From IMG/VR virus record IMGVR_UViG_3300011423_000006, positions 1-64,000 of that record: a stretch of 64,000 nt of DNA. One strand, written 5' to 3'. Below, one piece after another: positions 40,699 through 45,361 of the stretch. The notes under the pieces were generated by a model that made no database searches, had not been told where the DNA came from, and worked only from the letters and a program-made list of their open reading frames with translations. Position numbers and translations under genes: made by a program. This DNA comes from a virus (taxonomy: Duplodnaviria; Caudoviricetes). Numbering within the stretch: the stretch's first letter is position 1; each line of letters begins with the position of its first letter.

Positions 40699-41829
40699 TT
40701 ATCCTACCGAAACTTCTCCCTTAATCGCTGGATGGCTCTCATAACCGTCAATTCGAATATCTTCAAATCTAAAATCAAAAATATTATTCACCTTGGGATT
40801 TAACCAAAGCTTCGGGAGTTGCATCGGCTCGCGAGTTAATTGTTCTTTTACTTGATCTAAATGATTCTGATAAATATGCAAATCGCCATAGGTATGAACA
40901 AATTCGCCCGGAATCATCCCTACCGCATGGGCAACCATGCTTGTGAGTAGACCGTAACTAGCGATATTAAATGGCACGCCTAAAAAAGTATCGCATGATC
41001 TTTGATATAACAAGCAATTAAGACGCCGTTTAGGAATACCAAGCTTATCACATTCTATTTCCCAAATTTCTGAATCAACTCCATTTAAAAGACCAATCTT
41101 AATATATTCATGTTTATTAGCCGCGATAATAATTCTTTCTTCTGCGGTTAATTCCTCCGTATTAAAATGAAATAAACAATGACACGGCGGCAAGGCGCAA
41201 TGATCTACCCAATAGGGATGCCACGCACTAACAATCATGCGACGATCATCTGGATTGGTTTTAAGCTTGTCGATAACTTTTTGAAGTTGGTCAACAGTTT
41301 TGACAAATTCAATCTTACCCCGTTGAATATTGTCTCCTATATAATTATTATCAATAATAGGGTTTGGGTTTCCATAAGGAAACGCCCTCCACATTTGACC
41401 ATAAGTGCCTTGTCCTAAGTTACCATGTTCTTTTACAAAATCTTGGTCGCTAGAAAGAGTTTTAAGGTAATGGATGAATTTATCTTTTGATAATGGCACT
41501 CCACTAATATCAGTCCAATCATCACGAACCAATCCCTGTTTAACTTTTTCGGTATATCGCCTATAGCAATCCCCATTCCAAATATTACACCCGTTATCGA
41601 CCAAATATTTAATATTAGTGTCGCCCTTAATAAACCACAATAATTCATGAATAATAGCTTTAACTGCCATTTTCTTGGTTGTTAATAAAGGAAAGCCCTC
41701 CTGCAAATTAAATCGCGCTTGTGCCCCGAATACTCCTATAGTATTCATCCCGGTCCTATTTTTCTTGACGCGCCCCTTTTCTAAAATAAGACGCAACAAT
41801 CTTTGATATTCTAGGTCTGTGTTATTCAT
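40699..41829 (-). CDS. thyA: thymidylate synthase
   Basis: FPLLTTKK, ELLWF, YGQMWR, RRMIVSAW, ALPPCH, YQRSCD.FLGVPFNIASY, GDLHIY.NH. Confidence 0.95.
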   Translation of the reverse strand: MNNTDLEYQRLLRLILEKGRVKKNRTGMNTIGVFGAQARFNLQEGFPLLTTKKMAVKAIIHELLWFIKGDTNIKYLVDNGCNIWNGDCYRRYTEKVKQGLVRDDWTDISGVPLSKDKFIHYLKTLSSDQDFVKEHGNLGQGTYGQMWRAFPYGNPNPIIDNNYIGDNIQRGKIEFVKTVDQLQKVIDKLKTNPDDRRMIVSAWHPYWVDHCALPPCHCLFHFNTEELTAEERIIIAANKHEYIKIGLLNGVDSEIWEIECDKLGIPKRRLNCLLYQRSCDTFLGVPFNIASYGLLTSMVAHAVGMIPGEFVHTYGDLHIYQNHLDQVKEQLTREPMQLPKLWLNPKVNNIFDFRFEDIRIDGYESHPAIKGEVSVG

Positions 41830-43313: not shown

Positions 43314-43824
43314 AACCCCCGTCCGCTCGCTTTGTCTCCCCTAACTCGTTAACAAATTCAAACTCCAAACTAACATTGTCCCGGCCCTTCATTTGAGCAA
43401 TCGCATCTCCATTTTTATAAATTTTTTCAATATTAATCCATCCCATAATTCCTTGAAACGGAACAACACGTAAATCTTCTGGTTGCCAGATATAACGGAA
43501 ACGACACAAAATCTCTCCTGTATAACCCGTATCAATCGTTCCCACACTATTACAAAGTAATAAATTATATTTAGAAAGCGAGGACCGAGGGAAAATCTCA
43601 ATATGCTTTTCTGCTTCAGGGGTCCAAAACAAATTAGTTCTATATTCAATAAAATCTACTCGTCTCCAAAGCCCTTTTGCTTCCCCGTTTTTTATTAATT
43701 TTCCTTCTTCATTTACTCCTGTTACCAACGGGTCTAAAACAGTAAAAATATCATACCCCGCATCATCATCATGCGCCCGCTCGGGAATTCTGATTCCATC
43801 AATATTCTTTAATAATAATTTCAT
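43294..43824 (-). CDS. dut: dUTPase
   Basis: AGYD, PRSS, NSVGTIDTGYTGE, IAQ, RADGGFGSS. Confidence 0.92.
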   Translation of the reverse strand: MKLLLKNIDGIRIPERAHDDDAGYDIFTVLDPLVTGVNEEGKLIKNGEAKGLWRRVDFIEYRTNLFWTPEAEKHIEIFPRSSLSKYNLLLCNSVGTIDTGYTGEILCRFRYIWQPEDLRVVPFQGIMGWINIEKIYKNGDAIAQMKGRDNVSLEFEFVNELGETKRADGGFGSSKK

Positions 43825-44171
43825 TTGTTATGTAAAAATACTCTTGCTATTAATTCGCCTCTACGAATTTCACATTTATCTCTCGGTCCAAAAAACCCAT
43901 TAAACGCGTTCGCCGGTTCAAGCGGACTATTGTTTTGCAATAAAATCCATTTACTATCTTCATCCTCATTAAAATTATGATTTAAAAGAAAAATGTTCTT
44001 TTTTAAGGATAAATCATAATCCGGTAATATGCAAACAATTTTTTCGGGTTTAAAAACAGACTTTAAAAAAATCTGAATTGTCTTGCCCGGATAAATTAAA
44101 AATGAATTTAAAGACGTAATATATCCTTTGCTTTTGTCAGGAGTCAGAGCAAACACGCCAAATTCATTCAC
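43821..44171 (-). CDS. degenerate dUTPase-like protein
   Basis: LIYPGKT..I, ILLQNNS, EIRRGELIAR resemble dUTPase strands; catalytic motifs absent. Confidence 0.4.
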   Translation of the reverse strand: MNEFGVFALTPDKSKGYITSLNSFLIYPGKTIQIFLKSVFKPEKIVCILPDYDLSLKKNIFLLNHNFNEDEDSKWILLQNNSPLEPANAFNGFFGPRDKCEIRRGELIARVFLHNK

Positions 44172-44222
44172 TACACCAACTTTAAATCAATTTACAAAAA
44201 AACACAAGAAAAAACTTTTAAC

Positions 44223-44251
44223 TTGATTTTTAAAGAAAAACTAAATAAGAT
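44223..44251 (+). promoter_or_regulatory. sigma70-like promoter driving a non-coding element
   Basis: TTGATT-17-TAAGAT. Confidence 0.65.
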
Positions 44252-44257
44252 GTTTAA

Positions 44258-44807
44258 TGAATGCGAAAGGTCCGACCCCTTAGCATCAAATTGATCTTTG
44301 ATACAGAAAGTAGCTGAAACGCAATCTGCAAATAAATTCTGGGCTGGTTTAAAACCTTTTAAAGTTTTAAGTTACAGGGAATGAGTAGAGGAAACGGCAA
44401 AAAGTGAAAGCATTTATGCAAGTAGCGAGCCTTGATTATCTTGGTTTAAAACCCAATTTAATGAACGTTAAGACACTAAAGCCCGTAAAAAGAACTCCAA
44501 CAATGCGAAAGCAAGGTTACTTCGGGAGCATGGCGACCTCTGAGTTGGATGCCGTTGAATAACTAATCAAACGGTTTTTACCCCGTAAGGGGCCTGTACT
44601 CGAAAAAACTCTTAAAAATCCCACTTTCTAAAGACAAAGATTAATACATAACTTATTGACACTCAAGCGAGCGTAACCCTTAAAACGGTGAAGCGAATGG
44701 GAGAAGCGGGTTCAATAAGCCGTGAGATATTTAGTCTTAAAGAGGCTTCTTAATAGGATTTTTCTATTCCTCCCTCGAAATAGTATTCACTATGGAGTTA
44801 AGAGTTT
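44258..44807 (+). ncRNA. large structured ncRNA candidate, class unassigned
   Basis: No ORF of 60 aa or more; 5'/3' closing helix, GNRA hairpins and several long-range helices. Confidence 0.6.
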
Positions 44808-44900
44808 AATCATTTTTAATTCCAAACCATTGTACTTGAATATTTTAATAATTTGAATTTAATAATGAGCCAAATTGTGTGTACTAATTCAAAATAAGTG

Positions 44901-44929
44901 TTGATTTAAAATTATAAATCGTTTAATAT
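44901..44929 (+). promoter_or_regulatory. sigma70-like promoter
   Basis: TTGATT-17-TAATAT, 9 nt to ATG. Confidence 0.65.
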
Positions 44930-44938
44930 TATTCAATA

Positions 44939-45361
44939 ATGAAAGTCGTAGATATCTATACCGATGGGTCTAGAAATTATAACGCTACAATTACATCTTG
45001 GGGGTTTGTTGTATTGGACTCAGGGGCAATTATTGAAGAAAGAAATGGAATTCTAACTGGTCCAATTACTATTATGTATCAAATCGGAGGCGAATGCCAA
45101 GCTGTAATAGAAGCTTTAAAATATTGTAAACAAAATAATTTTAAATGCGATATTTATTTTGATTATATTGGCCTTAAATGTTGGGTAAACGATTTGTTCG
45201 GAGAGAAGCCTTGGCAAACCAAAAACCAATGGACCAAAGCATATCGCGAGGAACTTTTATCTCTAAAAGAATTTTTGAATAATATGATAAAAGTGAAGGG
45301 ACATAGTAATAACGAATTTAATGAGTATGCTGATTTATTAGCGAAAAAAGCTCTTGAATGA
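44939..45361 (+). CDS. rnhA: ribonuclease H
   Basis: IYTDGS, GEC.A...A, DY.G, KVKGHS....NEYAD.LAK. Confidence 0.85.
   Translation: MKVVDIYTDGSRNYNATITSWGFVVLDSGAIIEERNGILTGPITIMYQIGGECQAVIEALKYCKQNNFKCDIYFDYIGLKCWVNDLFGEKPWQTKNQWTKAYREELLSLKEFLNNMIKVKGHSNNEFNEYADLLAKKALE

Follow-up and report, generated by a model that had tools for sequence, protein, structure and literature searches.

The DNA analysed here (the window) comprises the first 64 kb (64,000 nt) of a 124,302-bp IMG/VR virus record with an estimated completeness of 64%; the phage is uncultured, stems from a freshwater-sediment metagenome run, and is also present on a contig of 213 kb. Its genome has a GC content of 36% and makes no use of Shine-Dalgarno sequences. 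Two divergent gene blocks, with ca. 65 minus-strand genes to the left and ca. 50 plus-strand genes to the right, meet at the main strand switch and are separated there by a gap of 767 bp (44172–44938), at which the global minimum of the cumulative GC skew falls as well. The minus-strand genes on the left encode a thymidylate synthase, a dCMP deaminase, a dUTPase, and a 116-aa product (43821–44171; GTG start, without a single Met) whose ORF overlaps the dUTPase start by 4 nt and for which no relative but itself was found among 5.8 billion proteins. The thymidylate synthase gene (40699–41829, minus strand) specifies 376 aa, and the match to its Pfam model of 266 positions spans residues 7–375, which implies an insertion of roughly 100 residues. 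The plus-strand genes on the right encode an RNase H (44939–45361; Pfam PF00075 over residues 3–139; PHROG 531), an HNH endonuclease (420 bp downstream of the gap), a dNMP kinase, a sigma-like factor, a glycosyltransferase, and a ribonucleotide reductase (RNR).

An earlier reading of the letters alone (referred to as the sequence-only reading) had described this gap as the only large one in a tightly packed genome, and this description held: the gap is non-coding and is the largest gene-free stretch of the entire record. One other stretch of at least 600 bp was left uncovered by a crude ORF map, but it is filled by overlapping frames in the ORF list, and the remaining uncovered stretches measure at most 350 bp. 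Within the gap, all six frames carry between 14 and 30 stops. Since TAA is frequent in every one of them, no stop-codon recoding opens a frame, and an alternative genetic code (i.e., TAG or TGA reassignment) was rejected on that ground. Comparison of the stop-to-stop frame fragments of the gap with Pfam yielded zero family matches. The longest small frame (44404–44562, plus strand; 52 aa from a GTG or 48 aa from the ATG at 44416) has a marginal coding score (–0.1 to +0.13 bits per codon vs. a genome-window median of 0.28), received no gene call in the public assembly, and lacks relatives in a set of 1.84 billion representative proteins.

Most of the gap is taken up by a core island of 550 nt (44258–44807, plus strand), i.e., the stretch that the sequence-only reading had proposed to be an RNA, with a GC content of 38.9% and a purine content of 55%, set between flanks of 86 and 131 nt with 18–19% GC. 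The rightward genes have a similar composition on their sense strand (34% GC, 55.5% purine). In 100-nt windows, the purine fraction is at least 0.56 from position 44150 onward and the GC skew is above zero from the window beginning at 44250, while the GC content of the gap centre lies at the unexceptional 81st percentile of genome windows.

The transcript envisaged by the sequence-only reading was to start from a promoter just left of this island. The elements in question, TTGATT (44223–44228) and TAAGAT (44246–44251), are indeed present with a 17-nt spacer (44223–44251, plus strand), but they match the sigma-70 consensus (TTGACA/TATAAT) at only 8 of 12 positions, which placed the site under the scan threshold so that it was not picked. 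It is credible solely because its layout matches that of the phage's own promoter class. More specifically, the genome contains the pattern TTGAnn-N16–18-TAnnnT-N5–10-ATG 21 times, with 10 of these occurrences situated exactly at the starts of ORFs of at least 50 aa, i.e., at 44939, 53395, 63437, 35586, 33823, 26416, and 7405 in the window and at 73527, 76716, and 120979 elsewhere in the record (the starts checked against the ORF list, i.e., 44939, 63437, and 35586, are all listed there). The site at 44223 shares its hexamer, its 17-nt spacer, and its distance to the ATG with the promoters at 44901, 53359, and 33859, which precede the starts at 44939 (RNase H), 53395, and 33823, respectively. 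The first of these is a second rightward promoter within the gap (TTGATT-17-TAATAT; 44901–44929, plus strand), located 9 nt ahead of the RNase H ATG. This recurrent layout and the absence of Shine-Dalgarno sequences suggest that the phage may use leaderless-type promoters and make many leaderless mRNAs, and such starts would be useful for annotating this phage and its relatives. The Bacteroidota-type promoter motif TAnnTTTG showed no enrichment in intergenic DNA.

A candidate leftward partner promoter of the same layout (TTGTGT-17-TAAAGT, followed after 7 nt by the GTG start 44171; 44179–44207, minus strand) was discerned by eye. If this site is functional, the divergent promoter junction would be confined to ca. 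44179–44251, and everything else in the gap (680 nt) would be downstream of the rightward promoter. A leader of 680 nt would not obviously aid translation of the RNase H gene, which has a promoter of its own in a genome without ribosome-binding sites. While the site at 44223 reproduces the class layout exactly (TTGATT-17-TAAGAT-9-ATG), the ATG at 44261, 9 nt past the –10 element, opens a frame of only 18 codons (MRKVRPLSIKLIFDTESS; 44261–44317, plus strand).

Part of the gap could be compared with that of a related strain from a second freshwater-sediment study (run X2), which is represented by tiny low-depth contigs covering the gap up to position 44387 and whose coding pieces are 89–100% identical to the window. 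Between 44127 and 44290, a segment spanning the two promoters as well as the initial 30 nt of the presumed transcript, 3 of 164 positions are changed (i.e., 98% conserved). Directly after 44290, 36 nt are replaced by about 58 nt (a ca. 22-nt indel, as reconstructed from two 30-letter loose ends). At the beginning of this replacement segment, the unit that precedes it (AAGGTCC.ACCCCTT.AGC) recurs in diverged form. Since this insertion alters the C-terminal half of the 18-codon frame, the latter probably does not specify a conserved peptide. From 44327 to 44387, 7 substitutions and two one-base deletions were found in 61 nt. The deletions remove one T at 44348 and one A at 44369 and would keep an AU-rich hairpin (44346–44373) in register, although this pairing of deletions was seen in a single contig at 2.4x depth, with both deletions in homopolymer runs. 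Conservation of the promoters but not of the 5′ part of the island suggests that the latter may be under weak constraint.

The ATG located 9 nt past the –10 element could be a sign of a decayed gene rather than of an RNA gene, in which case the promoter and ATG 44261 would be left over from a leaderless protein gene and the island would be a functionless pseudogene. Such decay is in line with the exact leaderless promoter-ATG arrangement, the normal GC content and sense-strand-like purine bias of the island, the absence of a structure signal (see below), the marginal coding score between 44380 and 44560, and the fast divergence of the related strain through indels that are not multiples of three. 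Nevertheless, stops are as dense in all frames as in random sequence, no residual likeness to protein families or (by tblastx) to the corresponding loci of related phages was detected, and the island has been kept in two strains even though tight phage genomes usually shed dead DNA. A decayed gene appears unlikely. In the promoter region, BLAST did produce matches to related phages (90–95% identity over about 20 nt), which fall within the opening codons of a 58-aa gene (MIFKEKLEEC...). However, because the phage carries an intact copy of this gene (80766–80933), these matches reflect chance similarity of AT-rich sequence and not the trace of a pseudogene.

The fold proposed for the island, with a closing helix between 44258–64 and 44783–89, a set of internal helices, and a pseudoknot, was examined by counting and by energy. 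All of the complementary segments quoted in its favour are present where they had been placed, but pairings of this kind are no more numerous than chance provides. The 550-nt core contains 72 perfect 6-bp pairings (vs. 56 ± 9 in shuffles), 57 pairings of 7 bp with at most one G-U (vs. 58 ± 11), and 14 pairings of 8 bp (vs. 17 ± 6). With helix counts at the level of shuffled sequence, a closing helix and a pseudoknot can always be assembled from sequence of this kind. Thermodynamic signal was absent as well: compared with dinucleotide shuffles, the fold of the whole region had a z of +0.48 on the plus strand and –0.34 on the minus strand, and none of the 120-nt sliding windows (z from –2.4 to +1.4) stood out. 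The closing helix, the internal helices, and the pseudoknot are at chance level.

Locally, a hairpin cluster (44496–44592, plus strand), composed of TCCAAC/GTTGGA around TGC-GAAA-GCA, of CCGTTGA/TCAAACGG, and of CCCC-GTAA-GGGG, is present in both the minimum-energy and the centroid fold, with a z of only –0.49 (44490–44600). GNRA loops had been taken as a sign of folding; the gap contains one GNRA hairpin with a 4-bp stem, which is not considered significant because ca. 0.1 are expected by chance (a rough estimate and not the output of a tool). At the 3′ edge of the island lies an AU-rich hairpin (44794–44823, plus strand) that is not followed by a U-tract and was not called as a terminator; the surrounding segment (44735–44830) has a z of –2.57, which is non-significant once the multiple windows are considered. 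No intrinsic terminator or other defined 3′ end was found in the gap.

These results bear on the proposal that the island encodes a compact, highly structured RNA of ca. 530 nt and of a new class, closed by the helix 44258–64/44783–89 and containing a pseudoknot. The island is non-coding and lies behind a promoter, it can form the tetraloop hairpins CCCC-GUAA-GGGG and UGC-GAAA-GCA, the paired deletions at 44348 and 44369 would hold the AU-rich hairpin in register, and one of the confirmed RNAs of related phages (described below) has a z as weak as –1.0. Weighed against this are helix counts at chance, a z of +0.48 overall without a significant local window, the single 4-bp GNRA hairpin vs. ca. 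0.1 expected, the hypervariable 5′ part in the related strain, and the absence of a defined 3′ end, of an Rfam match, and of any homologue in our searches. An RNA of this compact kind is regarded as improbable.

The sequence-only reading had further pointed to known families, and a search of the window with the 4227 models of Rfam 15 gave 0 matches at the gathering score. Across 44100–44950, lowering the stringency to E ≤ 10 produced four trivial matches only, all of at most 21 bits. Large RNAs such as ROOL and GOLLD occur in phages, and the ROOL, GOLLD, HEARO, and OLE classes (about 500–800 nt) are comparable to the island in size; unlike them, the island lacks a signal of fold stability and matches none of the models. 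The suggested ROOL/GOLLD/HEARO-like identity had to be rejected, as there was no covariance-model match even at E ≤ 10. For ROOL (RF03087; threshold of 99.1 bits), the whole 124-kb record was searched at E ≤ 10 without a match, with controls that were equally silent, so that the sensitivity of this particular search was not demonstrated. The GOLLD, HEARO, OLE, RNase P, and tmRNA models, which we presume to be part of the library used, had no match at the gathering score over the window, and the same library did detect tmRNA in related phages. ARAGORN found no tRNA or tmRNA.

A weak likeness to P7 of group I introns had also been noted, and the island indeed resembles such introns in its size, its GNRA hairpin, and the HNH gene 420 bp downstream. 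However, the group I model (RF00028, which covers the P3–P9 core including the P7 guanosine site) matched nowhere in the record at E ≤ 10, with its controls being positive in 8 genomes, and the island is not inserted in a gene. In fact, the flanks of the gap are the ends of two divergent operons with no interrupted host gene, and the RNase H is complete from its N-terminus (its Pfam match begins at residue 3), so the gap interrupts no gene. A group I intron was accordingly dismissed, and the group II intron domain model (RF01998) had no match either.

Homologues of the island at the nucleotide level, which could have revealed covariation, were absent from every collection searched. There was no DNA match to the gap in the phage collection and no second copy within the phage's own genome, an exact scan of viral and metagenome contigs with the conserved 5′ 21-mer returned nothing, and a literature search on phage early non-coding RNAs yielded nothing specific to this island. 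No relative of the RNase H exceeds 46% identity, and on the contigs of these relatives the RNase H gene directly follows another gene with no gap upstream. In one such contig (L015:2064–3632), which carries a 43%-identical RNase H, the neighbours adjoining the RNase H are a Gad1 homologue and a DUF2828 (TROVE-like) protein.

The position of the gap raised the possibility of a bidirectional replication origin, at which the transcript from the promoter would form an R-loop and be processed to a primer near the AT-rich 44808–44938 segment, in the manner of ColE1 RNA II or phage T4/T7. Those are promoter-dependent origins, and the present locus is like them in having a promoter ca. 550 nt upstream of an AT-rich segment (here 131 nt of 18% GC), an RNase H gene as an immediate neighbour, and the global low point of the cumulative GC skew, here coinciding with the main strand switch; the gap has no sequence relation to them, however, and the likeness is circumstantial. 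Moreover, the skew minimum does not single out an origin, because skew tracks gene orientation throughout the genome.

Repeats were scrutinized in the same context. The sequence-only reading had reported a motif occurring twice, and GGTTTAAAACC is indeed found at 44346 and 44443. It belongs to a near-palindrome, TGGTTTAAAACC, whose two copies (44345–44356 and 44442–44453, both plus strand) are 97 bp apart, with the first copy also forming part of the AU-rich hairpin 44346–44373. While this pair could be accommodated in an origin, the repeat content is not above that of shuffles: direct repeats are not enriched in the gap (P of about 0.12) and iterons are not above chance. DnaA-box-like sites are absent from the gap, and no initiator gene was recognised beside it. 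All in all, an origin at this place is considered quite unlikely. The occurrence of TTTAATGAA with an equal 204-bp spacing at 68.7 kb was dismissed as coincidence, and the AT-rich stretch 44837–44868 has no motif in common with similar places elsewhere.

Related phages were retrieved by an RNR search (59–71% identity) and share a block of dNMP kinase, sigma factor, glycosyltransferase, and RNR genes with the window. In three of them, an unannotated RNA of 385–440 nt is predicted on the minus strand (L030:8613–8996, L031:8590–8975, and L033:8533–8974), running from a good sigma-70 promoter to a strong intrinsic terminator. It is located at a back-to-back promoter junction, upstream of and co-oriented with the dNMP-kinase/sigma operon. 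The L030 and L031 versions are ca. 60% identical by eye (77% in the alignment summary), compared with 89% for the RNR proteins of the same two phages, and 16 of 83 predicted pairs still pair through changes on both sides. Without the terminator, the fold z values of the three RNAs are –3.2, –1.0, and –2.3. Rfam does not contain this RNA, and scans with its motifs only returned already known records. Judging from its sequence, it is a real, fast-evolving structured RNA at the equivalent place in these phages, and it makes a stronger case for a new phage RNA family than the gap of the window does. In L033, the 3′ body is the same but is preceded by a different 5′ module.

Like this RNA, the island is non-coding, fast-evolving, several hundred nt in length, and absent from Rfam, and it lies behind a sigma-70-like promoter at a back-to-back junction, upstream of the block with the dNMP kinase and sigma-like factor genes and in the same orientation; unlike the island, the RNA of the relatives ends in a strong terminator, has z values of –1.0 to –3.2, and displays compensatory changes. 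The gap agrees with the layout in the relatives in promoter and position, but a terminator was not found in it. Similarity between the gap and the RNA of the relatives could not be detected by BLAST, an nhmmer profile, or a covariance model. An unfiltered cmsearch of the window with model R1, built on the conserved 160-nt core, gave a best hit of 12.4 bits (E of 0.18) that falls outside the gap, and this model had no match in other relatives. Furthermore, a unit of this kind is missing in front of the dNMP-kinase operon of L023, the relative with the most similar RNR (71%), and the large gap of that genome lies in the opposite block.

Since relatives carry a promoter-to-terminator RNA upstream of the equivalent operon, a non-coding transcript at the present locus is plausible, and the positional parallel raises the prior for an RNA gene in the gap while leaving such a gene short of established. 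A stronger version would hold that the island is a fast-evolving, lineage-specific RNA that does the job of the relatives' RNA, having either diverged beyond recognition or replaced it non-homologously, in which case an RNA at the junction ahead of the dNMP-kinase/sigma operon would be a recurring and hitherto undescribed feature of this group of large environmental phages; one concrete form of this version would be an RNA II-like primer or regulator at an origin, working with the adjacent RNase H. We rate this stronger version as a rather unlikely one.

Some further features of the relatives were observed in passing. The same three phages carry a tmRNA gene just downstream of the RNR gene and its neighbour (L030:12015–12387, L031:12059–12433, and L033:12989–13363, plus strand), with scores of 85–128 bits to RF00023 and an ARAGORN tag of ANALKSLAFVPVVGREVAAVA, and the part at hand of the phage of the window has none. 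In two relatives, a break of about 0.9 kb divides the RNR match (L033:10264–11189 and L034:7740–8602), which could be due to an intein, an intron, or an inserted endonuclease gene; the group I model had no match at these splits. Yet another relative has a tRNA gene inside a 300-nt gap upstream of the RNR gene (L029:8665–8745, plus strand).

With nothing in support of a large folded RNA, we favour, if tentatively, the reading of the gap as an ordinary non-coding transcript or leader that lacks a global fold. According to it, the gap would harbour a rightward non-coding transcription unit at the main divergent promoter junction of the phage, where two back-to-back promoters lie within ca. 44179–44251, the rightward one belonging to the phage's sigma-70-like class. 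This promoter would open onto ca. 550 nt of gene-like composition that contain no reading frame, and the unit would end in the second AT-rich segment, which holds the RNase H gene's own promoter. Its product would most likely be a non-coding RNA of several hundred nt or an untranslated leader with a few small local hairpins, and neither a compact conserved pseudoknotted fold nor a member of a described large RNA class. We counted in favour of such a unit that its promoter is of a class with ten real gene starts, that the gene-like core lies between AT-rich promoter segments, that no frame of the gap is coding, that the promoters are conserved in the related strain, and that three relatives have their promoter-to-terminator RNA, and against it the 8/12 promoter match, the ATG past the –10 element, the lack of a terminator and of a fold signal, the divergence past 44290, the lack of likeness to the relatives' RNA, and the L023 genome without the unit. 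The sequence itself shows a non-coding region with this promoter layout and a gene-like composition, whereas its transcription, the rightward direction, and any role of the RNA are inferred; as to the role, our preferred guess, by analogy with the position of the relatives' RNA, would be that of an early regulatory or decoy RNA.

A gap that holds no more than a leader, an origin, or a gene in decay would be ordinary phage genome architecture. If its RNA proves stable and functional, however, long non-coding RNAs that evolve rapidly would be present at the early promoter junction of large environmental phages. The RNA of the relatives, with its compensatory changes and its absence from Rfam, would then be the better-supported first member.
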